From: a virus
IMG/VR virus record: IMGVR_UViG_3300045988_090085
Span: 1 to 55,970 of that record
DNA: 55,970 nt
Direction: 5' to 3' (one strand)
The notes below the pieces were generated by a model. That model was not told where the DNA came from and made no database searches. It saw only the letters and a list, made by a program, of their open reading frames with translations. Shown one piece after another: positions 1 to 55,502 of this stretch (positions are counted from its first letter, which is position 1; every line of letters begins with the position of its first letter). The position numbers and the translations under genes are program-made.

Positions 1-119
1 GCTTTTTTTGCTACCTTATCCTGTATTTTTTGCTTAACCTCAGGAAGTTTCTCCTCCGGGACCATTTCTTTAATCTGCTCCTCAACAGATTTCTTATAGT
101 CTCTAAATGCCTGATCTGA
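1..119. repeat. Terminal direct repeat identical to 55852..55970 (circular closure overlap or terminal redundancy)
   Basis: Read directly: bases 1-119 equal 55852-55970 base for base; unique length 55,851 bp. Confidence 0.95.
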
Positions 120-497
120 TACCGTCAACGCGGTCGTGAGCAATGCATTGCGCTTGAGACTCTGATGCGTTCCAAATATAATGCATACCGCTGAACCTAT
201 AGTCGTGAGTACAACTGGTATATAATAAGGTGCCTTTATTTTGAACACCTCACCGGCTGTAAGCGGATCAGGATCGCCTGTCACCCACTTCTGTGAAGCC
301 TCGTCCATGTATACTCGCTTACGGCTCTCCTGTACCTCCGCTAGCTTTGCTTCAGCTTTTTTGCTTGCATGAGCAGTCTGAAATATAGCGGTTACCATGC
401 CTGCTATACCAACACCCACACTGAGCTCGGTGACATGCTGGGAAGCCAATCTACCAATGTTTGCAGCGATAGGCTTCAAAGTGTCAATTACGCTCAT
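1..497 (-). CDS. Membrane protein, N-terminal part of a gene split by the window ends (continues 55851->55503, 281 aa total); paralog of 53493..54410
   Basis: ATG 497 after AAAGGAG RBS (MSVIDTLKPIAANIG..); frame runs off base 1 and joins ORF 55503..55916 in frame through the 119-bp identity (846 nt). Confidence 0.7.
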   Translation of the reverse strand, partial: MSVIDTLKPIAANIGRLASQHVTELSVGVGIAGMVTAIFQTAHASKKAEAKLAEVQESRKRVYMDEASQKWVTGDPDPLTAGEVFKIKAPYYIPVVLTTIGSAVCIIFGTHQSLKRNALLTTALTVSDQAFRDYKKSVEEQIKEMVPEEKLPEVKQKIQDKVAKK

Positions 498-795
498 TTG
501 AATTTCTCCTTTCAATTTCATCAATTAACATGCATTTGATGTCCTCGATCTCCTCAAGCATGTACCTACCATACTTTGTCGGATTGCGATCATCACCGTT
601 CAACAACATCTCGTGTGTCTTTTGCACAATTAGCATCGGGTCGAGATCCGTGTCGATTAACCTCTGCATTACATATTTGCAGACAGATCTGTGATATGAT
701 CGTTCCATAACCTTATACTTAGGCCATATTTTATCAGGCGGAATCATCTGCGCATAATGATCCCTTAAGATTTTAAGTGCTTCTGCGCCGGTCAT
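484..795 (-). CDS. Hypothetical protein (103 aa)
   Basis: ORF track; AAAGGAG RBS 7 nt before ATG; directly downstream of family-A hairpin 811..850. Confidence 0.75.
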   Translation of the reverse strand: MTGAEALKILRDHYAQMIPPDKIWPKYKVMERSYHRSVCKYVMQRLIDTDLDPMLIVQKTHEMLLNGDDRNPTKYGRYMLEEIEDIKCMLIDEIERRNSNERN

Positions 796-810
796 TGTCG
801 CATCTCCTTT

Positions 811-850
811 CAGAAAAGCTAAGAGAGCCTGTTACAGCTCTCCTGCTATT
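811..850 (-). terminator. Family-A hairpin + TTAGCTTTTC tail
   Basis: Minus strand AATAGCAGGAGAGCTGTAACAGGCTCTCTTAGCTTTTCTG; identical 40-mer at 1052 and 2035. Confidence 0.6.
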
Positions 851-862
851 AAGTTGGTTGTC

Positions 863-994
863 TTATCTGTGCTCTTTCTCCCACTCATCGAATCTCTCAT
901 CGATACGCTTCTGTGCTGTCTGCTGTGCATTTAATGTAGTCAGCACGGTACCAATGATACCGACGATCAGTGAAATTATTCCAAGCTTTGTCAT
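863..994 (-). CDS. Small membrane protein (43 aa, 1 TM), below track cutoff
   Basis: Hand translation MTKLGIISLIVGIIGTVLTTLNAQQTAQKRIDERFDEWEKEHR*; GGAGGTGAG RBS; own promoter-like motif and hairpin. Confidence 0.6.
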   Translation of the reverse strand: MTKLGIISLIVGIIGTVLTTLNAQQTAQKRIDERFDEWEKEHR

Positions 995-1007
995 AAGTTC
1001 TCACCTC

Positions 1008-1037
1008 CCTCATATAATAGTATGTTTTGCGCGCGAA
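1008..1037 (-). promoter_or_regulatory. Promoter-like motif copy (short-leader class)
   Basis: Minus TTCGCGCGCAAAACATACTATTATATGAGG; upstream of 863..994. Confidence 0.55.
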
Positions 1038-1051
1038 GTATGTTCAATCTT

Positions 1052-1091
1052 CAGAAAAGCTAAGAGAGCCTGTTACAGCTCTCCTGCTATT
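1052..1091 (-). terminator. Family-A hairpin + T tail
   Basis: Identical 40-mer to 811..850; 3 nt after stop of 1095..1277. Confidence 0.6.
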
Positions 1092-1094
1092 GAG

Positions 1095-1277
1095 TTACTT
1101 CTTGAATGCATCTTTGATGTTCTCAACTGAATCGTATATAGCCTCTGAGTCCTTGCTCCATTCGTCTGGATATTTAGTGCTGCAACGTGCCGCGGCTATA
1201 AGTCCGCGTACCACGCCTGCACAATAGCCTATACCAGCCGCACAGATGAATAAAATCATACCTATTACTTTCTTCAT
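1095..1277 (-). CDS. Small membrane protein (60 aa, 1 TM)
   Basis: ORF track frame trimmed to ATG (MKKVIGMILFICAAG..) 8 nt after GGAGG. Confidence 0.75.
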   Translation of the reverse strand: MKKVIGMILFICAAGIGYCAGVVRGLIAAARCSTKYPDEWSKDSEAIYDSVENIKDAFKK

Positions 1278-1310
1278 GTTAAAAACCTCCAAATAATATA
1301 TTTTGAGTTT

Positions 1311-1340
1311 CCTCATAAGAGAGCGTGTTTTTTACGCGAA
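1311..1340 (-). promoter_or_regulatory. Promoter-like motif copy (long-leader class)
   Basis: Minus TTCGCGTAAAAAACACGCTCTCTTATGAGG; upstream of 1095..1277. Confidence 0.55.
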
Positions 1341-1706
1341 TCAATAGGTTATGATCGTGCATTCCATGCCATCGCCGAGCTTAGTAGCAGTCTGTTCCAT
1401 GCGATATGGAATCCTGTATCTCCGACATATTTCAGCCATGGCGTTACTCATAAGCTTTACTACCGACGGCATTGCCTCGAAGTATTTTTCTGTGATCATA
1501 TCATAGTAGAGCTCGGAAGACTCGTAAGCAATTTTATAGTGTGAAGTTTTTGTCTCAAGTTTCGTATGTGGTCTTAAGGGCCCTTTCTTATCGTTTTTTA
1601 TGACGGAAACAATTGTTGCCTGGAGACCATTTATCACAGCAATAGTAGTTACAACAAGCTCTTTTCCGTCTCCGTACTCACGGGTCATATATAATACATT
1701 GTTCAT
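1341..1706 (-). CDS. Hypothetical protein (121 aa)
   Basis: ORF track; CAGGAGG RBS. Confidence 0.75.
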   Translation of the reverse strand: MNNVLYMTREYGDGKELVVTTIAVINGLQATIVSVIKNDKKGPLRPHTKLETKTSHYKIAYESSELYYDMITEKYFEAMPSVVKLMSNAMAEICRRYRIPYRMEQTATKLGDGMECTIITY

Positions 1707-1707
1707 T

Positions 1708-2022
1708 TCAATCCTCCTGTATAATATAATCTGGATTGCGCCTACAAAGCATTATCAGATACTCAGCACGTCTATTTATGCTCTTTACATTTGTAGGCAA
1801 ATTTGAGCCAGTGGAATGATCGAATCCTTTGAATACATCCGCGTACTCTACCTGTGCTGCTATATCAGGATATTCAGTCTGCAGATCCTCCAATTCAGAC
1901 GCCCATTTTGACCAAGTAGCATCTGAAATAAGATTCTCATTGTATCCATAATAAATAACTGAGTGTGTCCAGACCTGCAATCTTCGCCTGTGGATCAATT
2001 TGGCTATCTCTTCTCTTGACAT
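1708..2022 (-). CDS. Hypothetical protein (104 aa)
   Basis: ORF track; AAAGGAG RBS; directly downstream of hairpin 2035..2074. Confidence 0.75.
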   Translation of the reverse strand: MSREEIAKLIHRRRLQVWTHSVIYYGYNENLISDATWSKWASELEDLQTEYPDIAAQVEYADVFKGFDHSTGSNLPTNVKSINRRAEYLIMLCRRNPDYIIQED

Positions 2023-2034
2023 TATAACTCCTTT

Positions 2035-2074
2035 CAGAAAAGCTAAGAGAGCCTGTTACAGCTCTCCTGCTATT
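2035..2074 (-). terminator. Family-A hairpin + T tail
   Basis: Identical 40-mer to 811..850. Confidence 0.6.
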
Positions 2075-2084
2075 CTCAGCATCC

Positions 2085-2444
2085 TTATTTCTTAAATATG
2101 CTAGTGAATATGTGCTTAAAGGTGCTCGAACAAATCGAGCCCGTTTGCTCAAATATAAACCCCTGTCTGATCCACTCCTGTTTCTTAATAAACTCCGCGA
2201 CCCCAAGGGCTAATCCGCCGACACTGACACCAGTAGTAATACTATTGATGATTGTATCGCGCTTAACCTTGGACTTTTCAGCCTCCGCATCATCACGACT
2301 CTTCTCATAGTCCGTTACCGCCTTTGTCAGATCAGCAATGCCCTTGGACATCTTTGCATAATCATCAGGTCCAAGATTCATATCAGGCAGCTCTTTTGTC
2401 TGTCTTTCGATTTCCTCTCTGATCACCTTGCTAAATTCGTCCAT
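2085..2444 (-). CDS. Hypothetical protein (119 aa), coiled N-terminal half, hydrophobic segment near C-terminus
   Basis: ORF track; AAGGAAG RBS. Confidence 0.7.
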   Translation of the reverse strand: MDEFSKVIREEIERQTKELPDMNLGPDDYAKMSKGIADLTKAVTDYEKSRDDAEAEKSKVKRDTIINSITTGVSVGGLALGVAEFIKKQEWIRQGFIFEQTGSICSSTFKHIFTSIFKK

Positions 2445-2480
2445 ATTTACATCTTCCTTTCAAAAAATATTGGGATGCTC

Positions 2481-2510
2481 TCCCATAAAACAGGTTGATT
2501 TTATCGCGAA
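2481..2510 (-). promoter_or_regulatory. Promoter-like motif copy (long-leader class)
   Basis: Minus TTCGCGATAAAATCAACCTGTTTTATGGGA; upstream of 2085..2444. Confidence 0.5.
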
Positions 2511-2552
2511 AAAAAACTAAGACCCCATGTATTTCTACATAGAGTCTTATTC
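2509..2552 (-). terminator. Family-B hairpin + T8 tract
   Basis: Plus AAGACCCCATGTATTTCTACATAGAGTCTT: outer AGAC/GTCT and inner ATGTA/TACAT stems; minus strand then reads TTAGTTTTTTTTCGCG. Confidence 0.55.
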
Positions 2553-2555
2553 TGA

Positions 2556-2753
2556 TTATTTATGAATATATGCGATTACGTCAGCATACTTATTAGGTCT
2601 AAGTCCCATCATACGGAATCCGGTGCAGAATATCGAATACCCAATCTTACCAATTATATTTAAATCAGTAAACTCATCGGCTTTCCAAAATCCACCCAGG
2701 ACCCACAATTTGGACCCAATTATGCCAAGTATATGACCAATACATTTTTTCAT
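2556..2753 (-). CDS. Small hydrophobic protein (65 aa)
   Basis: ORF track; GAGGAGGTG RBS. Confidence 0.7.
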   Translation of the reverse strand: MKKCIGHILGIIGSKLWVLGGFWKADEFTDLNIIGKIGYSIFCTGFRMMGLRPNKYADVIAYIHK

Positions 2754-2763
2754 ATTATCACCT

Positions 2764-2793
2764 CCTCATATAATAGTATGTTTCAGTCGCGAC
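2764..2793 (-). promoter_or_regulatory. Promoter-like motif copy (short-leader class); overlaps the 3' end of 2783..3007
   Basis: Minus GTCGCGACTGAAACATACTATTATATGAGG; upstream of 2556..2753. Confidence 0.5.
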
Positions 2794-3007
2794 TCACTTT
2801 GAGTATCACCTTGTTTGTGTTCTCGAACTGGGCTGGCGAATCGGCATCAATTTCAATACTGAACATGTCTTTGTTAGGGTCTTTAGTGTTAACATGAAGC
2901 ACACCAAATCTGACCTTTGTACCAAGACCAGAAATCACTACCGTGAGAGCCATACCGCATGCAAGTCCCATCGACCATATGATAACGGCTACTATGTAGA
3001 ATGTCAT
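2783..3007 (-). CDS. Small membrane protein (74 aa, N-terminal TM)
   Basis: ORF track frame trimmed to ATG (MTFYIVAVIIW..) 6 nt after GGAGGTG. Confidence 0.7.
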   Translation of the reverse strand: MTFYIVAVIIWSMGLACGMALTVVISGLGTKVRFGVLHVNTKDPNKDMFSIEIDADSPAQFENTNKVILKVSRD

Positions 3008-3023
3008 TTTGATCACCTCCTTT

Positions 3024-3067
3024 CAGAAAAAGCTAAGAGAGCCTGTTACAGGCTCTCCTGCGTTGAG
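3024..3067 (-). terminator. Family-A hairpin (perfect 9-bp stem, 3-nt loop) + T tail
   Basis: Plus GAGAGCCTG-TTA-CAGGCTCTC; 1 nt after stop of 3069..3239. Confidence 0.6.
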
Positions 3068-3068
3068 T

Positions 3069-3239
3069 TCATTCGATTACCTTATCGATGTCGTCATCAC
3101 TTTCAAGTTTAGCAGAATGATCACGCAGCTGTATGAGACTAAACACACATCCAATAATCGGTAACATAATTACCGCATAGATGATGGTGTCCTTTACAGT
3201 TATCTGATGATTCATAAACTTCATAAACTTTTCTTTCAT
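3069..3239 (-). CDS. Small membrane protein (56 aa, 1 TM)
   Basis: ORF track frame trimmed to ATG (MKEKFMKFMNH..) after GGAGG. Confidence 0.7.
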   Translation of the reverse strand: MKEKFMKFMNHQITVKDTIIYAVIMLPIIGCVFSLIQLRDHSAKLESDDDIDKVIE

Positions 3240-3274
3240 AATAAAAACCTCCAATAATATAGTTTCGGATTTCT

Positions 3275-3304
3275 CCTCATAAAAGAGTGTGTTTATTACG
3301 CGAG
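3275..3304 (-). promoter_or_regulatory. Promoter-like motif copy (long-leader class)
   Basis: Minus CTCGCGTAATAAACACACTCTTTTATGAGG; upstream of 3069..3239. Confidence 0.55.
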
Positions 3305-3340
3305 AAAAAGGAAGAGCGCTTGTTATCGCGCTCCTGCCTG
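3302..3340 (-). terminator. Family-A variant hairpin with compensatory stem (GAGCGC/GCGCTC)
   Basis: Plus GAGCGCTTGTTATCGCGCTC; the stop codon of 3323..3502 lies in the loop. Confidence 0.55.
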
Positions 3341-3502
3341 TTCGAGGATTGTCTCTCTTACAAAATCGAGTTCTTCCATCATTTCTTTCTTAAGTCTTTC
3401 TGCTCTCACCCAATTTACTACGTACATGATTCCTGCTACAATTCCTGAAATTACAGCTGCCACGCCCATAACAATTGTTGCTACCTTAAAAACCTTTTTC
3501 AT
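3323..3502 (-). CDS. Small membrane protein (59 aa, 1 TM)
   Basis: ORF track frame trimmed to ATG (MKKVFKVATIV..) after GGAGTG. Confidence 0.7.
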   Translation of the reverse strand: MKKVFKVATIVMGVAAVISGIVAGIMYVVNWVRAERLKKEMMEELDFVRETILEQAGAR

Positions 3503-3536
3503 AATAAAACACTCCAAATTATATTTTAGGATTTCT

Positions 3537-3566
3537 CCTCATAAAGGAGCATGTAATTTACGCGAA
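3537..3566 (-). promoter_or_regulatory. Promoter-like motif copy (long-leader class)
   Basis: Minus TTCGCGTAAATTACATGCTCCTTTATGAGG; upstream of 3323..3502. Confidence 0.55.
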
Positions 3567-3599
3567 ATGCTAAGAGAGCCTGTTACAGCTCTCGTTCGC
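3564..3599 (-). terminator. Family-A hairpin
   Basis: Plus GAGAGCCTGTTACAGCTCTC, 3 nt after stop of 3602..3748. Confidence 0.55.
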
Positions 3600-3601
3600 T
3601 C

Positions 3602-3748
3602 TCAATTACAAATTTTGTCATACCATATGTCAATAACTTCTTTTACATAGTCCGTGCTTACATCATATTTCACGGCGATATCCTCTATTGAATATCCGTC
3701 GTGATACATGTAACAAACATCTTCCATAAAATTTTTCATTGCTGACAT
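3602..3748 (-). CDS. Small helix-turn-helix-like protein (48 aa), below track cutoff
   Basis: Hand translation MSAMKNFMEDVCYMYHDGYSIEDIAVKYDVSTDYVKEVIDIWYDKICN*; GGAG RBS; YSIEDIAVKYDVSTDYV looks like an HTH. Confidence 0.55.
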   Translation of the reverse strand: MSAMKNFMEDVCYMYHDGYSIEDIAVKYDVSTDYVKEVIDIWYDKICN

Positions 3749-3761
3749 TTTGATCAACTCC

Positions 3762-3791
3762 TTTCATAAGAGAGCGTGATTTTGTCGCGAC
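3762..3791 (-). promoter_or_regulatory. Promoter-like motif copy (short-leader class) containing the 18-bp palindrome ATTTTGTCGCGACAAAAT
   Basis: Minus GTCGCGACAAAATCACGCTCTCTTATGAAA; upstream of 3602..3748. Confidence 0.55.
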
Positions 3792-3830
3792 AAAATTTAG
3801 AGGCCATGTTTCCACAGCCTCATAGAATTA
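3791..3830 (-). terminator. Family-C hairpin (GAGGC/GCCTC)
   Basis: Plus TTTAGAGGCCATGTTTCCACAGCCTCATAGA; overlaps stop of 3828..4034; near-identical copy at 4960. Confidence 0.5.
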
Positions 3831-4034
3831 CTTGTCTAAATCATCGGAATCCCAATCATATTTTGAGATCGCAATGAAAGCGGCTCCCGTAAGTACCGCC
3901 TGAATTGGCCATATCCATGGCCCGTGTAGTAAGTGCCATGAAAGTACCATGGCCCCTCCACTAACCCAGAATATGATCGTTTTCATTGCGATCTTCCAGA
4001 AATCGTTTTTGTACCTTTCCCAAATTTTCTTCAT
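3828..4034 (-). CDS. Small membrane protein (68 aa, 2 TM)
   Basis: ORF track; AAAGGAGG RBS. Confidence 0.75.
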   Translation of the reverse strand: MKKIWERYKNDFWKIAMKTIIFWVSGGAMVLSWHLLHGPWIWPIQAVLTGAAFIAISKYDWDSDDLDK

Positions 4035-4064
4035 AATAAATTCCTCCTTTATTTAGTTGAGTTT

Positions 4065-4094
4065 CCTCATAATAGGAGATGTTCGGTACGCGAA
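4065..4094 (-). promoter_or_regulatory. Promoter-like motif copy (long-leader class)
   Basis: Minus TTCGCGTACCGAACATCTCCTATTATGAGG; upstream of 3828..4034. Confidence 0.55.
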
Positions 4095-4133
4095 AAGCTA
4101 AGACTCCATGTATTTCTACACAGAGTCTGTCGC
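4093..4133 (-). terminator. Family-B hairpin (AGACTC/GAGTCT)
   Basis: Plus AGACTCCATGTATTTCTACACAGAGTCT, then TTAGCTTTTCGCG on the minus strand. Confidence 0.55.
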
Positions 4134-4135
4134 TC

Positions 4136-4360
4136 TTATTTTCGGAATATTGTCTTAAGAAATCTCCTCAGCCCAACATGCTGATAAAGTTCGTAAAGTA
4201 TCTCATCAATATTATGTTCGACCTCATTGGGACTTAACTTGAGATCCGTTGCAATACTTTTAATACTGCGTCTCTCCATAAGTCCTAATAATATCTTACC
4301 ATTTTGATGAGATATCTTCTCTCTCTTTTCAGCTGTTAACGCCCATTTTTCTATAAACAT
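4136..4360 (-). CDS. Small HTH protein (74 aa), LuxR/sigma-region-4-like
   Basis: ORF track frame trimmed to ATG (MFIEKWALT..); SIKSIATDLKLSPNEVEHNIDEILYEL resembles a GerE-type HTH. Confidence 0.55.
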   Translation of the reverse strand: MFIEKWALTAEKREKISHQNGKILLGLMERRSIKSIATDLKLSPNEVEHNIDEILYELYQHVGLRRFLKTIFRK

Positions 4361-4372
4361 ATAAACACATCC

Positions 4373-4402
4373 TTTCATTAAATAGAATGTTTTATGCGCG
4401 AA
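4373..4402 (-). promoter_or_regulatory. Promoter-like motif copy (short-leader class)
   Basis: Minus TTCGCGCATAAAACATTCTATTTAATGAAA; upstream of 4136..4360. Confidence 0.5.
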
Positions 4403-4433
4403 AAAGAAGAGAGCTTGTTAGCTCTCTTTATTG
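4400..4433 (-). terminator. Family-A short hairpin (GAGAGC/GCTCTC)
   Basis: Plus GAGAGCTTGTTAGCTCTC; the stop codon of 4418..4588 is the loop TAA. Confidence 0.55.
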
Positions 4434-4588
4434 TTGTTAAAAAACATGTCCTTAATTACATATAGTAATGTAATCATTCCTAACAATACCTCCGGGATAG
4501 TAGAATCTATTGCCGATGCAATAAACGCAGCTATTCCTATAATTCCTATTGTTATTATTAAAATCATTACCTTCGCTTTTGTTGACAT
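4418..4588 (-). CDS. Small membrane protein (56 aa, 2 hydrophobic segments), below track cutoff
   Basis: Hand translation MSTKAKVMILIITIGIIGIAAFIASAIDSTIPEVLLGMITLLYVIKDMFFNNNKES*; AAAGGGG RBS. Confidence 0.6.
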   Translation of the reverse strand: MSTKAKVMILIITIGIIGIAAFIASAIDSTIPEVLLGMITLLYVIKDMFFNNNKES

Positions 4589-4601
4589 ATAAATCAACCC
4601 C

Positions 4602-4631
4602 TTTCATTAGAGGGTATGTTTTTGTCGCGAA
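4602..4631 (-). promoter_or_regulatory. Promoter-like motif copy (short-leader class)
   Basis: Minus TTCGCGACAAAAACATACCCTCTAATGAAA; upstream of 4418..4588. Confidence 0.5.
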
Positions 4632-4670
4632 AAGCTAAGAGCCCTAGATTTCTCTAAGACTCTCGTTTGA
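4630..4670 (-). terminator. Family-B variant hairpin with compensatory inner stem (TAGA/TCTA)
   Basis: Plus AGAGCCCTAGATTTCTCTAAGACTCT; same architecture as 4093..4133. Confidence 0.5.
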
Positions 4671-4676
4671 GTTTAC

Positions 4677-4898
4677 TCATTTAATACTTTTAAACATTGA
4701 TTCGGCTGCCTTATTATATATCACTGCCAATTTGCGCTTACGCCACATACGCTTTTTGTAAAAATCATTCATATAAAGTGCCATAGTAGCTTGCAAAAGC
4801 ATCCCGGAATCTTCCGTAATGTTAGCAGCCACCAAACAACCTTTAAGAAATTTATTACTCTTTCTAAGTGTTCTGTAAGCCTTAATGCGTTCAAACAT
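4677..4898 (-). CDS. Small basic protein (73 aa)
   Basis: ORF track frame trimmed to ATG (MFERIKAYRTL..) after GGAGG. Confidence 0.7.
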   Translation of the reverse strand: MFERIKAYRTLRKSNKFLKGCLVAANITEDSGMLLQATMALYMNDFYKKRMWRKRKLAVIYNKAAESMFKSIK

Positions 4899-4930
4899 AA
4901 TAATTACCTCCAATAAATTAATTTGAGTTT

Positions 4931-4960
4931 CCTCATAAGAGAGCGTGATTTTGTCGCGAC
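4931..4960 (-). promoter_or_regulatory. Promoter-like motif copy (long-leader class)
   Basis: Minus GTCGCGACAAAATCACGCTCTCTTATGAGG; upstream of 4677..4898. Confidence 0.55.
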
Positions 4961-4999
4961 AAAAATTAGAGGCCATGTTTCCACAGCCTCATAGAGTTA
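4960..4999 (-). terminator. Family-C hairpin (GAGGC/GCCTC)
   Basis: Part of the 74-nt unit 4933..5006, which matches 3764..3837 at 72/74. Confidence 0.5.
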
Positions 5000-5167
5000 C
5001 TTGTCTTTTTTCTTAAAGATCGCTTTAATCAGCATAACAAGTATAAATATCCCGATCACAATATCTGCAATCGGTAACAACAGTAATCCTCCTCCTGAAA
5101 TCAGGACAATGACTCCTACTGTCACCACAATTAATAATGCAATCATGACAATACAAAATGTTATCAT
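4997..5167 (-). CDS. Small membrane protein (56 aa, 2 TM), below track cutoff
   Basis: Hand translation MITFCIVMIALLIVVTVGVIVLISGGGLLLLPIADIVIGIFILVMLIKAIFKKKDK*; TAGGAGG RBS. Confidence 0.6.
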   Translation of the reverse strand: MITFCIVMIALLIVVTVGVIVLISGGGLLLLPIADIVIGIFILVMLIKAIFKKKDK

Positions 5168-5203
5168 AAATCGTACCTCCTATAAAGTAGTTTTAAGATT
5201 TTC

Positions 5204-5233
5204 TCTCATAATACAGGATGTTTCCCACGCGAC
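5204..5233 (-). promoter_or_regulatory. Promoter-like motif copy (long-leader class)
   Basis: Minus GTCGCGTGGGAAACATCCTGTATTATGAGA; upstream of 4997..5167. Confidence 0.5.
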
Positions 5234-5274
5234 GGAAAAAAGCTAAGAGAGCTTGTTACAGCTCTCTTGCGTTG
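5234..5274 (-). terminator. Family-A hairpin (GAGAGCT/AGCTCTC)
   Basis: Plus GAGAGCTTGTTACAGCTCTC immediately after stop of 5275..5556. Confidence 0.55.
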
Positions 5275-5556
5275 TTACTTGTTCGTTATCTCTTTCATCT
5301 TTTCTTTGATTCTTTTATCGATTTTCTCTTCCATTTCTGCTCTAAGCATGTACTGGAATACGTATCGGCTGTTTGTTCTCACATTAAAGAACTCCTCAGT
5401 TCCCTGCCGTCTCAGAGGATTCGTTTTAATCCAGAGTTTTTTCACCCCGGTTTCCGCAACCTCCTGATGACAAAGATCCATAAGCTCGTTAAAGTGCTGA
5501 ACTAGCCATTCGCCATTTCTTTCCCATTCATACATAAGCATATTTTTCTTTTTCAT
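5275..5556 (-). CDS. Hypothetical soluble protein (93 aa)
   Basis: ORF track frame trimmed to ATG (MKKKNMLMYEWERNG..) after GGAGG. Confidence 0.7.
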   Translation of the reverse strand: MKKKNMLMYEWERNGEWLVQHFNELMDLCHQEVAETGVKKLWIKTNPLRRQGTEEFFNVRTNSRYVFQYMLRAEMEEKIDKRIKEKMKEITNK

Positions 5557-5589
5557 AATAAAACCTCCATAAAATTTGATTGAGATTTC

Positions 5590-5619
5590 TCTCATAAGAG
5601 ACCGTGTTTATTACGCGAA
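5590..5619 (-). promoter_or_regulatory. Promoter-like motif copy (long-leader class)
   Basis: Minus TTCGCGTAATAAACACGGTCTCTTATGAGA; upstream of 5275..5556. Confidence 0.55.
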
Positions 5620-5652
5620 AAAGCTAAGAGAGCCTGTTAGCTCTCCTGCTTG
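5617..5652 (-). terminator. Family-A short hairpin
   Basis: Plus GAGAGCCTGTTAGCTCTC; the stop codon of 5637..5834 is the loop TAA. Confidence 0.55.
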
Positions 5653-5834
5653 TTTTCGTCATCCTTACATACTTCGCTGTAGAATAATACTGCGCCACCA
5701 GCCATTATTGATATGCCTAATATAAGTGCAAGTATAGCAATTCCAACGCATCCGCAACATCCTAAAATGAAGCTAATGGTTATCATGCCTGCTCCTACAA
5801 ACATATTAAGTCCGCCTAATAATTGCTTTAACAT
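5637..5834 (-). CDS. Small membrane protein (65 aa, 2 TM, Cys-rich)
   Basis: ORF track frame trimmed to ATG (MLKQLLGGLNMFVGAG..) after AAAGGAGG. Confidence 0.7.
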   Translation of the reverse strand: MLKQLLGGLNMFVGAGMITISFILGCCGCVGIAILALILGISIMAGGAVLFYSEVCKDDENKQES

Positions 5835-5870
5835 AATAAAATCCTCCTTTAAAATTTGTAATAAATTACT

Positions 5871-5900
5871 CTTCATAAAGGAGTATGTAATCAACGCGAA
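5871..5900 (-). promoter_or_regulatory. Promoter-like motif copy (long-leader class)
   Basis: Minus TTCGCGTTGATTACATACTCCTTTATGAAG; upstream of 5637..5834. Confidence 0.55.
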
Positions 5901-5924
5901 AAAAAAGAGTCCATGTAATAGTGA

Positions 5925-5952
5925 AGTGGCTCAGCAAACACGCCAAGCCACT
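5925..5952 (-). terminator. Hairpin after holin gene (AGTGGCT/AGCCACT, 7 bp)
   Basis: Read directly; 12 nt after the holin stop; followed on the minus strand by a remnant of the GAGTCCATGTAA family-B arm and a T8 tract. Confidence 0.45.
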
Positions 5953-5964
5953 AAACCATTTTGA

Positions 5965-6195
5965 TCATTTAGACTTATTACCGTCACCGTCGTAGTAATC
6001 CATACGATCGTGATACTGCTGTGTGCTTATACCCAGAATTATACCCAGGAACGCATCAATAGCAGTAATTGTACCTACCACCTGCTCGCCATAGGGAAGG
6101 TCCCAAATCTGTGCAAGTGCGAAGTACAATGTGCCGAGTGCAGGGAGCAGATACTGTGCAACCCACTTGAGTGCATCATATACCTTGTTACTCAT
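5965..6195 (-). CDS. Holin (Dp-1-like family pattern)
   Basis: 76 aa; VYDALKWVAQYLLPALGTLYFALAQIWDLPYGEQVVGTITAIDAFLGIILGIS gives 2 TM, typical of the Dp-1 type holin family as recalled; no search run. Confidence 0.6.
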   Translation of the reverse strand: MSNKVYDALKWVAQYLLPALGTLYFALAQIWDLPYGEQVVGTITAIDAFLGIILGISTQQYHDRMDYYDGDGNKSK

Positions 6196-6517
6196 CTGCT
6201 TTTTCCTCCTTTGGCGGGTGCGCCACTATATTGAGTTTAACATCTACCTCGTCCATGACCCTTTTAGCAGAGCCATTACCACCCATTTTCTGATAGGGCA
6301 CGTAGAGGTAGTCATGAAGATTTTCATACTCATCTCGAGTAATCCAATCCCCTCTCTCAAGATATGACATGCCCAGATATAATATTCGATCATGTGCAAG
6401 ACCAACGAGCATCTGATTCTTGACGTCTTTCATATCGGCAATTTTCGTAAAAAATGCCCAAAGACCGCTTGATGCCAGCACTGAGCACACAATCGTTATA
6501 ATTGATTCAACGCCCAA
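6188..6517 (-). CDS. Membrane protein (109 aa, N-terminal TM), lysis-module neighbour
   Basis: ORF track frame; TTG start 7 nt after AAGGAGGGG chosen over the RBS-less upstream start. Confidence 0.55.
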   Translation of the reverse strand: MGVESIITIVCSVLASSGLWAFFTKIADMKDVKNQMLVGLAHDRILYLGMSYLERGDWITRDEYENLHDYLYVPYQKMGGNGSAKRVMDEVDVKLNIVAHPPKEEKADE

Positions 6518-6531
6518 GTTTATACCCCTCC

Positions 6532-6915: not shown

Positions 6916-6927
6916 GGCGAGAATAAT

Positions 6928-37832: not shown

Positions 37833-37947
37833 TTTTGAGCAGGACCCAGCAGGTTGAAAGAGGAAGATAAGATGGAGGTCCAAACCATGGGTCGTCAGGG
37901 ATTGGAGGATATATCAACATATGGAGGTCGCCAAGTCCTGCTCAAAA
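37833..37947 (-). promoter_or_regulatory. Leader element: perfect 13-bp inverted repeat (TTTTGAGCAGGAC/GTCCTGCTCAAAA) enclosing 89 nt with three CCTCCA motifs
   Basis: Read directly; 3' arm ends 4 nt before TTGAAAGGAG, the RBS of 37501..37812. Confidence 0.55.
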
Positions 37948-37982
37948 GATAAGAGAGAAAGTAGTTATTGTCTCTTTCTCTC
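37943..37982 (-). terminator. Leader hairpin (9 bp GAGAGAAAG/CTTTCTCTC) + TTATCTTTT: attenuator-like
   Basis: Starts inside the 3' end of promoter-like copy 37980..38009. Confidence 0.45.
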
Positions 37983-38009
37983 CATAAAAGACCATGTTTC
38001 GCGCGCGGA
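37980..38009 (-). promoter_or_regulatory. Promoter-like motif copy heading the nuclease/RNAP operon
   Basis: Minus TCCGCGCGCGAAACATGGTCTTTTATGGAG. Confidence 0.45.
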
Positions 38010-39191: not shown

Positions 39192-39221
39192 CTTCATAAA
39201 GGAGTATGTATTAATCGCGTG
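39192..39221 (-). promoter_or_regulatory. Promoter-like motif copy
   Basis: Minus CACGCGATTAATACATACTCCTTTATGAAG; upstream of 38992..39165. Confidence 0.5.
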
Positions 39222-40617: not shown

Positions 40618-40647
40618 TCTCATAAGAGGCAGTGTTTTCTTCGCGGA
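40618..40647 (-). promoter_or_regulatory. Promoter-like motif copy (short-leader class)
   Basis: Minus TCCGCGAAGAAAACACTGCCTCTTATGAGA; upstream of 40232..40603. Confidence 0.5.
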
Positions 40648-44197: not shown

Positions 44198-44227
44198 CCT
44201 CATAAAGGAGTATGTAATTTACGCGAT
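44198..44227 (-). promoter_or_regulatory. Promoter-like motif copy (long-leader class)
   Basis: Minus ATCGCGTAAATTACATACTCCTTTATGAGG; leader nearly identical to that of 3828..4034. Confidence 0.55.
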
Positions 44228-45759: not shown

Positions 45760-45791
45760 ACCAATATTCTCCTTTCAAAAATAAAAGACTT

Positions 45792-45863
45792 AAAAGACCT
45801 TGGGAATCGAACCCAAGAACTCTCGATCAACTCGAACGTGTTACCATAGTTACACCAGTCTTC
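45792..45863 (-). tRNA. tRNA-like gene, best read as tRNA-Gln(UUG) with a non-canonical anticodon loop
   Basis: Minus GAAGACT-GG-TGTA-ACTATGGT-AACA-C-GTTCG-AGTTGAT-CGAGA-GTTC-TTGGG-TTCGATT-CCCAA-GGTCTTT-T; canonical T arm and GG D-loop; G at positions 8 and 33. Confidence 0.6.
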
Positions 45864-47117
45864 TCATAATACACCATGCATTTTTCGCGAATTATTGTTG
45901 AAGGACTCGTAGAATCGTCCTTCATTGAATTTACCCTTAGCCTTCAAAGCTCTGGTTATTGCCCTGTCGATTGGACTTCTCGATACAAGATGATAATACC
46001 ACAGATTCATATAAGGCGTATTGAGGCGATCAATTCGTCCCTGTGCTTGGTTCATTATTCGCCAACTATAATTCTGAGAGTAGAATATTATAGTATCGGT
46101 AGTGATACAATTCCAACCCTCGGCACCTGCAGCATAATTGACCAAATAAACCCATTTACTTGATGTAGGGACGGGTTCGTGCTTATGCCCATTCCACTCA
46201 GCAATTTCTATGTCATCGCCATAATCAATAGACTTGAGTATATCCAACTCGAAATCATAATTGTAGAAGATGATGGCAGTGGGATGCTTCTCAATCAATT
46301 CAAGTAGAGCTACCACGCGACTCTCATCACTAAAAGTAATCTGTCGAAGAACACTACAGAATTGTGCAGCATTTTCTATAGGCTCTCCTTCCAAATTTTG
46401 CCGTGTCTTAATGACTTGCGTTATCAACTCGCCATCATATCTAACAGCAATTTCTTCGTGGTGAGAGGTTGTCTTCCGCTTGAAATCCATATCCACAAGT
46501 AATTCATCTCGATGCTGGATAAGCAATTCGACATTTATATATTGCAGCACTTGAGGGAATGTGGTTCTCGGATTATAGACAATGTGATAATACTCGAACT
46601 CGCTTTTATTTCGGTAGAACCCATTGGCAATGAATACCGCCATGTAGTCCTCCCATTTGTCGCCAGGAGTAGCGGATAACAGTACCCATTCGTTATTCCT
46701 AGCAATCTTTATAAAGGTTTTTGCCCATTTTCCGTATCCAACGACACGCTGTTCGTCAAATATGAAGAAGGCATCTTTAACATTGACATATTTTTCTATA
46801 TTATTCCAACTGTCAACAATTACTTGATTATCGTATTCATTAGCATCTGGATGTGGAGACAGCAAGAATGGTGCCATATCGACCGACCATTCTGCCGTAT
46901 CTCTCTTCCTAGCAGTTGTAATAATATATAAGTCTTTTGGGCGGGTCATCATAGAAAACTTCTTAGAAGTGTCATACAAATCACCACCCATTCGACTGTA
47001 ATAGTATGCCAACGATGTCCGGCTTTTACCAGAGCCAACTCCGCCACAGAGAATGCAACCATTATGCATTTTTCTTATAGCATCGAGTTGATAATCATAC
47101 ATTGGTACACTACTCAT
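45864..47117 (-). CDS. SF2 (SNF2/DEAD-like) helicase
   Basis: GGVGSGKS (Walker A), FIFDEQ (DExx box), ..QAQGRIDR.. (motif VI). Confidence 0.75.
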   Translation of the reverse strand: MSSVPMYDYQLDAIRKMHNGCILCGGVGSGKSRTSLAYYYSRMGGDLYDTSKKFSMMTRPKDLYIITTARKRDTAEWSVDMAPFLLSPHPDANEYDNQVIVDSWNNIEKYVNVKDAFFIFDEQRVVGYGKWAKTFIKIARNNEWVLLSATPGDKWEDYMAVFIANGFYRNKSEFEYYHIVYNPRTTFPQVLQYINVELLIQHRDELLVDMDFKRKTTSHHEEIAVRYDGELITQVIKTRQNLEGEPIENAAQFCSVLRQITFSDESRVVALLELIEKHPTAIIFYNYDFELDILKSIDYGDDIEIAEWNGHKHEPVPTSSKWVYLVNYAAGAEGWNCITTDTIIFYSQNYSWRIMNQAQGRIDRLNTPYMNLWYYHLVSRSPIDRAITRALKAKGKFNEGRFYESFNNNSRKMHGVL

Positions 47118-55472: not shown

Positions 55473-55502
55473 TCTCATAAGAGAGTGTGTTTTTATCGCG
55501 AA
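55473..55502 (-). promoter_or_regulatory. Promoter-like motif copy (long-leader class)
   Basis: Minus TTCGCGATAAAAACACACTCTCTTATGAGA; upstream of 55102..55434. Confidence 0.55.

Follow-up and report, generated by a model that had tools for sequence, protein, structure and literature searches.

Organization of the small-gene array

The window, by which we mean the whole stretch of 55,970 nt analysed here, is a complete, circularly assembled 56-kb genome with an exact terminal repeat of 119 bp, so that the array described below runs on past the window start. The phage is best read as a siphophage of the "1706 / FP_oengus / actinophage AM-AU-BI-DJ" supercluster, and the array region as the beginning of its early, hyperplastic genome arm. 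All array genes lie on the minus strand (484-5960). An earlier note on this DNA had described about 19 tiny ORFs of 43-121 aa; the array is there, but with starts placed at the SD-preceded ATG we counted 18 ORFs in this size range from the holin to position 484. The order within a cassette is an RNA hairpin with T tract, a 30-nt motif, a leader and a small ORF, usually for a membrane protein. Leaders are either short, with the SD right at the inferred transcript 5' end, or long (25-45 nt). The coordinates of all features are collected in Table 1.

Kyte-Doolittle profiles (19-residue window) gave nine ORFs with a segment at or above 1.6 and three others with weaker segments. The nine ORFs previously named as hydrophobic all proved to be so, ORF 3828 weakly, whereas the two called HTH proteins (3602 and 4136) gave sub-threshold HTH matches or none. 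The payload may include candidates for host takeover, superinfection exclusion or anti-defence, as the earlier note proposed; only one array ORF contains a recognisable domain, namely a stand-alone NAD-ligase Ia domain. Beyond the closest relatives the payload genes are ORFans, whereas both DUF6353 and the motif occur widely. The pN/pS ratio of array ORFs against two relatives was 0.09-0.12, and ORF 4136-4360 differs from its counterpart in relative L015 by 17 synonymous and 2 non-synonymous changes. This comparison shows that the array ORFs are real genes, kept by purifying selection.

The array contains 15 elements with a hairpin and T tract, and a scan of positions 1-8000 found 24 terminator-like sites against 5.1 +/- 2.3 expected. 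Four array ORFs have a hairpin upstream but no promoter, so the hairpins cannot terminate with full efficiency.

Table 1 Features of the array and of related sites elsewhere in the window.
Feature	Position	Strand	Evidence	Remark
Holin	5965..6195	-	Pfam Phage_holin_Dp1, E=8e-33	Last late-block gene; upstream boundary of array
DUF6353 gene (281 aa), 5' part	1..497	-		Spans circular junction, resumes at 55851-55503
DUF6353 gene, 3' part	55503..55851	-
Two-barrel (YonO/RdRP-like) RNA polymerase, 922 aa	34207..36975	-	phrog_4291, E=0	Presumed motif reader
tRNA-like element	45791..45864	-	ARAGORN, relaxed threshold only	Marginal; begins at position 28 of motif copy 16
Motif copy 1	5871..5900	-	PWM 38 bits	TTCGCGTTGATTACATACTCCTTTATGAAG
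Motif copy 2	5590..5619	-	PWM
Motif copy 3	5204..5233	-	PWM
Motif copy 4	4931..4960	-	PWM	In duplicated terminator-promoter unit
Motif copy 5	4602..4631	-	PWM	Short leader
Motif copy 6	4373..4402	-	PWM	Short leader
Motif copy 7	4065..4094	-	PWM
Motif copy 8	3762..3791	-	PWM	Short leader
Motif copy 9	3537..3566	-	PWM
Motif copy 10	3275..3304	-	PWM	Entire cassette missing in L016
Motif copy 11	2764..2793	-	PWM	Short leader; overlaps stop of ORF 2783-3007
Motif copy 12	2481..2510	-	PWM
Motif copy 13	1311..1340	-	PWM
Motif copy 14	1008..1037	-	PWM	Short leader
Motif copy 15	55473..55502	-	PWM	Ahead of ORF 55102-55434 (110 aa, 1 TM)
Motif copy 16	45862..45891	-	PWM	Immediately ahead of tRNA-like element
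Motif copy 17	44198..44227	-	PWM	Ahead of ORF 43979-44167 (62 aa, hydrophobic)
Motif copy 18	40618..40647	-	PWM	Short leader; ahead of ORF 40232-40603
Motif copy 19	39192..39221	-	PWM	Ahead of ORF 38992-39165 (57 aa, hydrophobic)
Motif copy 20	37980..38009	-		Head of nuclease-nuclease-RNAP operon
Hairpin	5925..5952	-		3' of holin gene
Terminator-like hairpin	5626..5647	-		Loop holds stop codon of ORF 5637-5834
Terminator-like hairpin	5245..5268	-
Terminator-like hairpin	4969..4990	-		GAAA loop
Hairpin	4637..4664	-		GAGAAATC loop, then TTAGCTTTT
Terminator-like hairpin	4407..4428	-
Terminator-like hairpin	4101..4128	-
Terminator-like hairpin	3800..3821	-
Hairpin	3572..3593	-		GAGAGCTGTAACAGGCTCTCTT
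Terminator-like hairpin	3312..3335	-		T tract is one L016 deletion junction
Terminator-like hairpin	3035..3059	-		RBS directly after, no motif; T tract is other L016 deletion junction
Terminator-like hairpin	2518..2549	-
Terminator-like hairpin	2045..2068	-		RBS directly after
Terminator-like hairpin	1062..1085	-
Terminator-like hairpin	821..844	-		RBS directly after
Leader hairpin + T tract	37944..37983	-		From inferred +1 of motif copy 20; candidate attenuator
ORF, 65 aa	5637..5834	-		2 TM
ORF, 93 aa	5275..5556	-		Soluble; 47-48%-identical allele in relatives, flanks conserved
ORF, 56 aa	4997..5167	-		TM
ORF, 73 aa	4677..4898	-		Unrelated ORF in its place in L015
ORF, 56 aa	4418..4588	-		TM
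ORF, 74 aa	4136..4360	-		phrog_1058 match only
ORF, 68 aa	3828..4034	-		Two weak hydrophobic segments
ORF, 48 aa	3602..3748	-		Sub-threshold HTH matches
ORF, 59 aa	3323..3502	-		TM
ORF, 56 aa	3069..3239	-		TM; missing in L016
ORF, 74 aa	2783..3007	-		TM; without own motif
ORF, 65 aa	2556..2753	-		Missing in L015 and L016
ORF, 119 aa	2085..2444	-		phrog_15866 (function unknown)
ORF, 104 aa	1708..2022	-	PF22745, E=4e-24	Stand-alone NAD-dependent-ligase Ia domain
ORF, 121 aa	1341..1706	-
ORF, 60 aa	1095..1277	-		TM; 41-44%-identical allele in relatives
ORF, 43 aa	863..994	-		TM
ORF, 103 aa	484..795	-

A 30-nt motif precedes most small genes

The motif, tTCGCG-N6-ACA-N5-yTnTTATGAGr, occurs 20 times genome-wide, 14 times within the array. 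The PWM scores of these copies were 30.7-46.6 bits, everything else on both strands scored at most 8 bits and shuffled sequences reached at most 9.8 bits; a strict sub-pattern of the motif matched 7 times against 0.02 expected. Each of the 20 copies lies on the coding strand, and none falls within the RNAP-to-lysis block. The view that nearly every ORF has its own promoter-like motif and hairpin stands for the motif in 14 of the 18 array ORFs, alongside the 15 hairpins, but not for ORFs 2783-3007, 1708-2022, 1341-1706 and 484-795 (starts 3007, 2022, 1706 and 795), which have no motif. Likewise, the conserved module reaches into the first codons in some cassettes but not in the others. The same design was correctly said to recur at 38992, 40232, 43979 and 55102; these are ORF ends, and the ORFs are preceded by the motif copies at 39221, 40647, 44227 and 55502. 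A 74-nt terminator-promoter unit is duplicated at 97% (3764-3837 and 4933-5006), and the repeated regulatory DNA is more conserved than the genes it flanks. The site of motif copy 20 is kept in relatives, and a leader hairpin equivalent to the one after it follows the polymerase-operon motif in FP_oengus, loci L003-L004 and Secretariat.

Single cassettes are lost, gained and replaced

We compared the array with two relatives, L015 and L016, which are roughly 93% identical to it (about 88-97%). Both lack the cassette of ORF 2556-2753, with a crossover within the promoter motif, and the resulting hybrid motif is composed of the 5' half of copy 2793 and the 3' half of copy 2510. Homologs of this ORF were found in none of the fetched loci. 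In L016 the cassette with ORF 3069-3239 is deleted, and the junction falls within the T tracts of hairpins 3312-3335 and 3035-3059. The comparison further revealed one additional inserted cassette and one swapped ORF, where homology stops at the ATG and returns at the terminator tail, GCTCTTAGCTTTTCGCG. At two other ORFs the alleles are ~60% identical, and the sequences on either side of them ~90-97%. Junctions are thus located within the motif, in the terminator T tract or at the start codon. These alignments show the regulatory repeats as the crossover points for deletion, insertion and replacement of single cassettes, which bears out the PeSL-like, sequence-unrelated shuffling that the earlier note had proposed.

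The motif follows a phage lineage

The motif was found in register (TTCGCR at 1-6, ACA at 13-15, T21, T23, ATGAG at 25-29) in Faecalibacterium, Arthrobacter and Gordonia phages, with 14 sites in FP_oengus, 8 in Arthrobacter phage Cheesy, 10 in Arthrobacter phage Caterpillar and 10 in Gordonia phage Secretariat; Lactococcus phage 1706 has a diverged version. At least 72 IMG/VR loci carry 2-14 sites each, always on a single strand. FP_Lagaffe, a phage of the same host species as FP_oengus, has 0 sites (maximum 1.7 bits) and no annotated polymerase of the two-barrel YonO type. Such a polymerase, with HTH domains, is encoded by all motif-bearing isolates examined, and the polymerase is present in 17 of the loaded IMG/VR pieces with the motif. 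By this distribution, the motif is specific to a lineage and not to a host.

Arthrobacter phages of clusters AM and AU and Rhodococcus phages Pepy6/Poco6 have been described as carrying arrays of small-membrane-protein genes after the tail genes (PMC5513430), and in cluster AU a 32-bp intergenic "boundary repeat" has been reported to promote rearrangements (bioRxiv 10.1101/2020.01.10.891226). We found that this repeat belongs to the same motif family. The small-gene cassette array is therefore not peculiar to the present phage. We found no earlier report in the literature that assigns the repeat as a promoter.

Start-site geometry and a candidate polymerase

The motif lacks a -35/-10 pair spaced by 16-18 nt, and sigma-70-type sites were not enriched. 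The SD starts before position 27 in 0/404 sites and lies at positions 27-31 in 64 sites, and 9/10 tRNA(-like) genes in phages with the motif begin at positions 28-31. Because SD sites and tRNA-like genes start 1-5 nt after G27, the start site would be inside the motif, and the tRNA-like genes put it at or before about position 28. From these SD and tRNA-like positions we infer a transcription start either on G27 of ..TTATG(A/G)R or beside it. Were a -10 hexamer located at 21-26 or 24-29, +1 would fall at position 32 or beyond. At positions 25-28, 5' stem-loops were only modestly enriched (64 vs 40 in the control). The SPbeta amplicon used for mapping the YonO start site, to our knowledge the only known one, contains GTCATTTATGAGGGTG, which equals the 3' core of the motif, a match of only ~9 nt.

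Residues 880-921 of the polymerase match Sigma70_r4_2 and HTH_23, indicating a C-terminal sigma-region-4-like HTH, and its DFDGD loop (ADFDGD) aligns with the catalytic loop of YonO. An HHpred link to PF05183 has been reported (bioRxiv 10.1101/842583). The similarity to YonO is remote (BLAST E=0.55), and in a Foldseek search with the poor AF2 model (pLDDT 63) the matches to RNAP large subunits fell short of significance. Homologs of motif-bearing phages are 44-50% identical. Depositors annotated the homolog in Lactococcus phage 1706 (orf75 of EU081845) as "structural protein" and ReqiPoco6 gp106 as structural, by similarity, suggesting that the polymerase is probably injected with the DNA.

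We consider it reasonably probable that the cassettes of the early hyperplastic region are driven by the phage's own polymerase. The motif would be read by this single-polypeptide two-barrel enzyme (34207-36975), not by the host sigma-A holoenzyme. The recognition elements would be TCGCG (about -25 to -21) and ACA (about -14 to -12), for which the HTH domains of the polymerase are natural candidate readers. The yTnTTAT segment would melt, and transcription would start at or adjoining G27 in a T7-like compact geometry. The enzyme would enter with the DNA and transcribe the early cassettes at once, and motif copy 20 with its leader hairpin before the polymerase operon may provide feedback or attenuation.

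Alternative readings of the motif

That the motif is instead an early promoter for host sigma-A RNA polymerase seems unlikely to us. The host enzyme would act either alone, the motif being a "-10 + discriminator" promoter (TWTWAT-GRRA) that lacks a -35, or together with a phage activator or sigma-appropriation factor on TCGCG/ACA, like T4 MotA boxes. The phage polymerase would then serve the late block only, using a separate promoter close to the end of the genome, like SPbeta YonO. We keep this reading, perhaps with an activator, because positions 21-26 and the following G-R-R-A (G27-A-R-A) resemble a sigma-A -10 and discriminator; the actinophages have TATAAT at 21-26, and 45% of IMG/VR sites have TATTAT there. 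Early phage genes are mostly transcribed by the host, the polymerase operon itself lies behind a motif copy, and the synteny of polymerase, small gene, long non-coding region and late genes parallels SPbeta. However, the -11-equivalent A is absent in 15/20 window sites, the TTCGCG box is 14 nt, not 17, from the hexamer, and TCGCG and ACA, which are not sigma-A boxes, are kept across two bacterial phyla. A start 6-8 nt past position 26 would leave about 20% of sites without their SD and fall inside 9 tRNA-like genes. Furthermore, FP_Lagaffe has no site in the host species of FP_oengus, and the polymerase is the only conserved activator known in the supercluster. A generic early, host-type promoter thus fits poorly with a lineage-specific motif whose geometry is not sigma-70-like and which co-occurs with a phage RNA polymerase.

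The stoperators of Cluster A mycobacteriophages are also intergenic and oriented on one strand, and the strict orientation and intergenic location of the repeat would suit such a binding site. Nevertheless, we regard as very improbable a role purely as a DNA-binding-protein site (stoperator-like or partition-type) or recombination "boundary sequence" with no promoter function, the latter being how the cluster AU preprint reads its 32-bp repeat (bioRxiv 10.1101/2020.01.10.891226). The motif is always 3' of a hairpin and T tract and a fixed short distance 5' of an SD or tRNA-like end, is retained both by temperate FP_oengus and by actinophage clusters that are strictly lytic, and is conserved well past the needs of homologous recombination, across polymerases of the stated divergence. 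If long polycistronic transcripts carried the motif as an RNA-level element, for processing or as a 5'-UTR signal, this would account for tRNA-like 5' ends and SDs adjoining the motif 3' end and for the 5' stem-loops of some leaders, but such a reading is hardly credible given three conserved blocks with fixed-length non-conserved spacers, no covarying pairing (permutation p = 0.56-0.79), no Rfam family match and a conserved part that mostly comes right after a terminator-like hairpin.

Comparison with known systems

The array shares with the PeSL of T4-type phages the principle of small genes flanked by promoter and stem-loop and shuffled as modules; the sequences are unrelated. If the phage polymerase reads the motif, the inferred geometry would be like that of T7-type promoters, which are compact and have the start within the promoter. 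Its proposed entry with the DNA for early transcription would be like that of N4 vRNAP and crAss-like gp66. In SPbeta, YonO uses a single promoter, from which it transcribes late genes (PMC5467207); unlike that late promoter, the present motif occurs in the early/middle arm only, with none in the structural block.

Small genes and repeated elements of the array

The run of small ORFs between the holin gene and the window start, which the earlier note took to be an array of cassettes coding mostly for membrane proteins, proved to be real: with starts set at the ATG preceded by a Shine-Dalgarno (SD) sequence, 18 ORFs of 43-121 aa lie in 484-5894. A hydrophobic helix was strong in nine of these and weaker in three more. 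Judged by their sequence the array ORFs are genes; against two relatives, pN/pS was 0.09 and 0.12 (~0.12 for the small ORFs alone), synonymous changes being about tenfold more frequent per site than non-synonymous ones. Pfam and PHROGs were informative for only two of the small ORFs (Nlig-Ia and DUF6353). Among the 145 loci compared, 17 of the 18 ORFs had no homolog, or one or two weak ones, beyond the closest relatives, whereas DUF6353 and the repeated motif described below were widespread. A 104-aa ORF at 1708-2022 (-), which sits in the array without its own promoter, is a stand-alone NAD+-binding Ia domain of NAD-dependent DNA ligase (PF22745, E=4e-24; phrog_6466); its possible roles are binding of NAD+ or NMN, or interference with either the host ligase or NAD-based defence.

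Between the ORFs stand two kinds of repeated element. One is a hairpin of RNA type, in many cases GAGAGC-TGTAAC-AGGCTCTC or a GAAA-capped stem, with TTAGCTTTT after it. The array holds 15 such hairpin and T-tract elements, and a scan of 1-8000 found 24 terminator-like sites against 5.1 ± 2.3 expected. In three cassettes (hairpins 5626-5647, 4407-4428 and 3312-3335, minus strand) the last codons of the ORF form the 5' arm of the terminator and the stop codon lies in the loop, the overlapping ORF ends reading ..QES, ..KES and ..GAR before the stop; the exchangeable module therefore takes in C-terminal residues.

The second element is a 30-nt promoter-like motif with the consensus tTCGCG-N6-ACA-y-N4-yTnTTATGAGr. 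When its PWM was run over the whole genome, exactly 20 sites of 30.7-46.6 bits were found, 20/20 on the coding strand, and nothing else exceeded 8 bits on either strand (shuffle maximum, 9.8). Fourteen sites are inside the array and the other six at 55502, 45891, 44227, 40647, 39221 and 38009; the same scan found none between the polymerase gene and the holin. Motif copies precede the ORFs ending at 38992, 40232, 43979 and 55102, where the same cassette design had been claimed to recur. Within the array, 11 of the 14 copies come after a hairpin and T tract, most of them at 0-10 nt (23 nt at copy 1037, named by its 5' coordinate), and 14 of the 18 ORFs have a motif of their own. The remaining four have a hairpin alone or nothing upstream, and because they depend on read-through, the hairpins cannot terminate with full efficiency. 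One terminator-promoter unit of 74 nt is present twice in the window, 97% identical, between unrelated ORFs.

Turnover of cassettes between close relatives

The shuffling of cassettes that the earlier note had likened to the PeSL (promoter-early stem-loop) system was borne out by two IMG/VR contigs, L015 and L016, which are 88-97% identical to the window across the array. They differ from it by whole cassettes, and the junctions fall within the motif, within the T tract of the terminator, or at the ATG together with the terminator tail. Both lack ORF 2556-2753 and its terminator and carry one single hybrid motif, whose first 15 nt are those of window copy 2793 and whose last ~20 nt are those of copy 2510; the crossover was therefore between the ACA and TTATG boxes. 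L016 also lacks the unit made of promoter 3304, ORF 3069-3239 and a hairpin, and here the junction is in the CTTTTTCT tails of two hairpins, which explains the promoter-less cassettes of hairpin, RBS and ORF. In L015 there is one additional cassette (promoter, 59-aa membrane ORF, hairpin), and an unrelated ORF replaces 4677-4898, homology stopping at the ATG and restarting at GCTCTTAGCTTTTCGCG. For ORFs 5275-5556 and 1095-1277 the relatives' alleles are 41-48% identical at the protein level between flanks that are ~90-97% identical. The junctions of indels and replacements between close relatives were thus resolved at the nucleotide level, and the same behaviour, turnover at regulatory repeats, has been described for the PeSL cassettes of T4-type phages (PMC2839356, PMC4122927). 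A megablast of the array region against INPHARED phages gave no hit.

Position of the array in the genome

The first and last 119 bases of the window (1-119 and 55852-55970) are exactly identical; the window is a complete phage genome, circularly assembled, with a unique length of 55,851, and its minus strand carries all the genes. In circular order, the helicase is followed by a small-gene stretch, two nucleases and a 922-aa polymerase-like protein, then by a structured non-coding region of 430 nt and by the packaging, head, tail and lysis genes. The array after the holin continues over the window junction as far as the replication genes. From this circular order, the array is the start of the early arm and no appendix of the lysis genes. 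The identical layout is seen in Faecalibacterium phage FP_oengus, whose array is at the left end after the integrase. The head-maturation-protease and major-capsid genes of the window are fused (25345-27210, minus strand; phrog_3270 and phrog_10), a fusion previously noted in clusters AM and AU (PMC5513430).

Coordinates of features in the window and of corresponding features in related phages
Feature	Genome or locus	Position (strand)	Remark
Primase-polymerase	Window	47898-51890 (-)	
Helicase	Window	45864-47117 (-)	
922-aa polymerase-like protein	Window	34207-36975 (-)	After two nucleases
Dp-1-type holin	Window	5965-6195 (-)	End of lysis genes
DUF6353 gene	Window	497->1 and 55851->55503 (-)	281 aa; spans circular junction, next after the 18 array ORFs
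Hairpin and T tract after operon-heading motif	Window	37944-37983 (-)	
Hairpin and T tract after operon-heading motif	FP_oengus (L012)	~27710	
Hairpin and T tract after operon-heading motif	L003	~8930	
Hairpin and T tract after operon-heading motif	L004	~5365	
Hairpin and T tract after operon-heading motif	L021	~35760	
tRNA-like gene	Window	45791-45864 (-)	
tRNA-like gene	FP_oengus (L012)	2935-3006	
tRNA-like genes	L047, L067, L120, L031, L079, L086		
Motif sites	FP_oengus	Coding strand	14 sites
Motif sites	Arthrobacter phage Cheesy	Coding strand	8 sites
Motif sites	Arthrobacter phage Caterpillar	28-33 kb, coding strand	10 sites
Motif sites	Gordonia phage Secretariat	Coding strand	10 sites
Motif sites	ReqiPoco6	Coding strand	One site (short piece scanned)

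The non-coding region that separates the late genes from the polymerase module (33521-33950, minus strand) is GC-rich and strongly self-complementary (GGGGAGGGG..CACCCCCTC and TTAAGCCCTAGTA..TACTAGGGCTTAA). Because the contigs and genomes of relatives stop 300-700 bp past the polymerase gene and the cos end of ReqiPoco6 is there too, this region is probably where the genome physically ends (cos), and a late promoter may lie there as well. Upstream of the packaging genes, a perfect extended sigma-70 consensus, TTGACA-16-TGnTATAAT, lies within ORF 32476-32754 at 32645-32618 (-). The relative with 99% identity matches it at 11/12 positions and remoter relatives lack it; it could be a late promoter for the host polymerase or a chance occurrence. 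Another sigma-70-like site (11/12, TTGATA-17-TATAAT; 51939-51967, minus strand) was seen 49 nt upstream of the primase-polymerase start. Rfam at gathering thresholds found nothing in the whole window.

The motif and a large polymerase occur together

Among PHROGs, the 922-aa protein hits 4291 ('RNA-dependent RNA polymerase') at E=0, and its ADFDGD loop is invariant in 24 homologs. Its C-terminal HTH is above the Pfam thresholds for Sigma70_r4_2 and HTH_23; the Pfam RdRP match (E=0.005) is below the cut-off. BLAST against YonO aligned the two proteins over the catalytic loop with E=0.55, suggesting a remote link. According to a preprint (bioRxiv 10.1101/842583), its gene is the signature of a phage supercluster that spans Actinobacteria and Firmicutes, and the protein itself, which carries HTH domains at either end, is a two-barrel RNA polymerase of the YonO/crAss-like type (HHpred 95.7%). 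A PDB sequence search with the polymerase gave no hit. An AF2 model built with 24 close homologs (pLDDT 63, pTM 0.37) was too poor to confirm the fold, and the top Foldseek matches of this low-confidence model were RNAP large subunits and LuxR-type HTHs, all with E of 0.14 or more and so too weak to use. Homologs 44-50% identical over 97% of the length are present in 251 isolate genomes, among them phages of Arthrobacter, Gordonia and Streptomyces, Lactococcus 1706-like phages, Rhodococcus Pepy6/Poco6 and FP_oengus, and at least 8000 were found in metagenomes.

The homolog in phage 1706, orf75, is annotated 'structural protein' in the original GenBank record, and the ReqiPoco6 record carries a 'structural' annotation for gp106, by similarity. 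The polymerase (aa 23-44, 36891 region) and ORF 31656-32120 (aa 20-40, 32057 region), which adjoins the large terminase on its upstream side, have in common an N-terminal HYGxPRRSGR(W/F)xxGSGxxP(Y/F)Q; HYGxxRxSGRYPWGSG is found in the polymerases of FP_oengus, 1706, Cheesy and Secretariat. This shared motif could target proteins to the virion or bind DNA in the manner of an AT-hook.

A PWM built from IMG/VR sites found the 30-nt motif in the identical gapless register in phages of differing hosts, where it precedes small ORFs and the nuclease-polymerase operon; the repeat is thus conserved across phages of two bacterial phyla. Lactococcus phage 1706, whose polymerase is the most divergent (39% identity), has a diverged form, TTCGCA-N5-TTACAT-N5-TATAGTAG. 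In all, the motif was present in 6/6 of the polymerase-encoding isolates examined (FP_oengus, Cheesy, Caterpillar, Secretariat, ReqiPoco6 with one site, and 1706 with the diverged form). In FP_Lagaffe, which has the same host species as FP_oengus and no such polymerase annotated, the PWM found no site (best 1.7 bits). An exact-pattern scan of IMG/VR returned at least 119 loci; 72 of those listed bear 2-14 sites each, invariably on one strand, and 17 of the partial loci with the motif also contain the polymerase, these being pieces and not whole contigs. Upstream of the polymerase gene of 1706 (L020 2135-3082) we also observed 450 nt of non-coding DNA in which CTATCACGAAAAAACTTCGGGAAAACTTCGGGATT occurs three to four times; this region may be an origin or a regulatory array.

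The motif copy heading the nuclease-polymerase operon is followed, directly from the inferred +1, by a hairpin and T tract in the window, FP_oengus, L003-L004 (two related loci) and Secretariat, which suggests attenuation of, or feedback on, polymerase synthesis.

Probable start of transcription and proposed reading of the motif as a promoter

To place the start of transcription, we used 404 unique motif sites. The ATG positions are bimodal with a sharp lower limit: in short-leader sites the ATG is at motif positions 40-48, in long-leader sites at 50-72. Six window cassettes, with ORFs under purifying selection, are of the short-leader type. The SD never starts before position 27, and in 64 sites it starts at 27-31, overlapping G27-A-R-A. 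Of ten tRNA or tRNA-like genes found by ARAGORN in these phages, nine start at positions 28-31, i.e., 1-4 nt past G27, among them the FP_oengus gene at 2935 and the window element at 45864. The recurrent tRNA-like genes have irregular anticodon loops and are reported as 'tRNA-???' or seen only at a relaxed threshold. The window's own element is marginal: it has a perfect T arm, yet ARAGORN at default and Rfam at gathering thresholds found nothing there, and relaxed searches gave tRNA-Gln(ttg) with ARAGORN and tRNA-Sec with Rfam (16 bits, E=1.1). A decoy, an odd suppressor or an RNA stabiliser are candidate roles for these genes.

From the SD and tRNA-like positions we infer that transcription starts at about A25-G27, at or before position 28, right after the conserved TTAT. 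5'-terminal stem-loops were in modest excess (19/34 against 11 expected; 64 against 40 in a second count) and lend this start weak support.

We hold, with slightly better than even confidence, that a two-barrel RNA polymerase made of a single polypeptide, bearing sigma-4-like HTH domains and delivered in the virion, has the motif as its cognate promoter, which would be conserved from Clostridia phages to actinophages. The start would lie inside the block, as in T7, and transcription of the early genes would be private to the phage, while the promoter-terminator repeats would serve as a recombination scaffold for constant turnover of accessory genes. If the 'structural' annotation of 1706 orf75 reflects virion proteomics, the polymerase would be injected with the DNA and could then read the ~20 early units at once.

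Reading of the motif by host sigma-A, possibly with a phage factor, seems improbable to us but stays a live rival, because the actinophage motif holds a perfect TATAAT followed by GAGA. TTCGCG and TATGAG are 17 nt apart, yet TATGAG never ends in T (no T at -7). Only 14 nt separate TTCGCG from the hexamer at 21-26, which reads TATAAT in actinophages and yyTTAT in the window, where most copies lack A at the second position. Furthermore, the inferred +1 directly adjoins the conserved block, whereas a sigma-70-type -10 at 21-26 or 24-29 would place the RNA start at position 32 or later, inside the tRNA-like genes and downstream of the SDs. The standard sigma-70 register was rejected, as no -35/-10 pair at 16-18 nt is present and the SD and tRNA-like positions put +1 at or before 28; sigma-70 consensus scans gave counts near the shuffle expectation, with a small excess in the AT-rich array, and no match coincided with the cassettes. 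An N4-like promoter hairpin (CTCTC-TTATG-GAGAG) was also rejected, its arms being conserved without covariation and complementarity within sites being no higher than between sites (p = 0.56-0.79).

For the cognate-polymerase reading, SPbeta offers a lead. The published primers with which the sole known YonO start was mapped bracket 243 nt in SPbeta (supplement of PMC5467207), and this amplicon includes TCATTTATGAGGG, which is the motif's 3' core. GTCATTTATGAGGGTG lies in the amplicon ~106 nt upstream of the 5' end of the extension primer, with a second copy 157 nt further up. The two TCATTTATGA(A/G)GG copies (SPbeta locus L022, 4444 and 4601, minus strand) are between yonN and yonK, one inside the mapping amplicon and both within a 1.7-kb non-coding region containing the YonO start site. 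Two exact-pattern scans of the contigs of a representative genome for the published start, B. subtilis 168 position 2225998, gave no match, so this genome evidently lacks SPbeta. In the 24-kb SPbeta stretch no PWM site reached 14 bits, so the TCGCG and ACA boxes are absent. Because the match is short and the start is bracketed by primers rather than placed exactly, we treat the likeness as a lead only.

Implications

The PeSL principle in T4-type phages, the membrane-gene arrays and the AU boundary repeat are already known. Our literature search, outside which lay older subscription papers on Pepy6/Poco6 and 1706, found no report of the repeat as a promoter, of its two-phylum conservation with the polymerase, of the start-site geometry or of nucleotide-level junctions. 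For YonO-type polymerases, Forrest et al. (2017) left open the promoter that is recognised and any need for helper factors (PMC5467207). With ~20 aligned sites per genome, hundreds across relatives, a start base inferred from the sites and three boxes that are candidates for recognition, this lineage makes the question directly testable with one protein and a 40-bp template. If our reading is true, it would give the YonO/RdRP-like phage polymerases, a very large family, their first promoter consensus. The enzyme, if orthogonal to that of the host, would be a new, compact tool for expression in Gram-positive bacteria. At nucleotide resolution, the array shows promoter/terminator repeats driving the turnover of gene cassettes outside T4-like phages too, and it joins the scattered earlier notes on membrane-gene arrays and a 'boundary repeat'. 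The early small membrane proteins of the cassettes form a well-delimited pool that changes quickly, from which candidates for screens of host takeover, exclusion or anti-defence could naturally be drawn.

Comparison with known systems

The motif resembles T7/T3/SP6-type promoters in being compact (~25 bp), with a conserved block up to the start site, an AT-rich TTAT/TATA before the +1 G, a purine-rich initial transcript (inferred for the motif) and many copies in one orientation. The likeness is in architecture only: the T7-type polymerase is of the right-hand type and the one here would be two-barrel, from unrelated families, and one contiguous block there corresponds to three separated boxes here.

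N4 vRNAP and gp66 of the crAss-like phage phi14:2, a two-barrel enzyme, are virion-delivered early RNA polymerases. They share with our proposal a polymerase in the particle (here by the 'structural' annotation of 1706 orf75) and early phage-specific promoters. N4 promoters, however, are DNA hairpins, whereas the motif has no covarying hairpin, and the polymerase here has ~900 aa with HTH domains and is no giant multidomain protein. Morons of lambdoid phages are likewise autonomous promoter-gene-terminator units inserted between genes, but they are scattered, use host promoters and have no common flanking repeat, unlike the window cassettes.

Small membrane-protein gene arrays in ReqiPepy6/Poco6 were reportedly described by Summer et al. 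in 2011. Such arrays after the tail genes are known for Arthrobacter AM/AU and Rhodococcus ReqiPepy6/Poco6 (PMC5513430); genome position, gene type and phage supercluster are shared, but these reports concern gene content alone, without regulatory cassettes or turnover. The 32-bp intergenic 'boundary' repeat of cluster AU (Giantsbane preprint, bioRxiv 10.1101/2020.01.10.891226) belongs to the same motif family: Caterpillar, compared in that preprint, has 10 PWM sites. It too borders small genes prone to insertion, deletion and translocation. The preprint reads it as a recombination boundary within one cluster, the words 'promoter' and 'RNA polymerase' occurring 0 times, whereas here the junctions are placed at the nucleotide level and tied to transcription geometry and a polymerase.

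With YonO of SPbeta (Forrest et al. 2017, PMC5467207) the polymerase would share a single-polypeptide two-barrel architecture and the DxDGD loop; the homology is only remote, and one late promoter, P_YonO, contrasts with ~20 early/middle copies here. In the PeSL cassettes of T4-type myoviruses (Arbiol et al. 2010, PMC2839356; Comeau et al. 2014, PMC4122927), as here, a composite of stem-loop terminator and promoter is repeated between small ORFan genes of hyperplastic regions, and the repeats hold the junctions of indels and replacements between close relatives. A further PeSL trait is the recombination of adjacent repeats into encapsidated mini-circles. The two systems have no sequence similarity, and ours is in a siphovirus of Gram-positive hosts. 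The PeSL promoter is a strong sigma-70-like early one, whereas the motif is not sigma-70-like, is probably read by the phage polymerase and is conserved across phages of two bacterial phyla.
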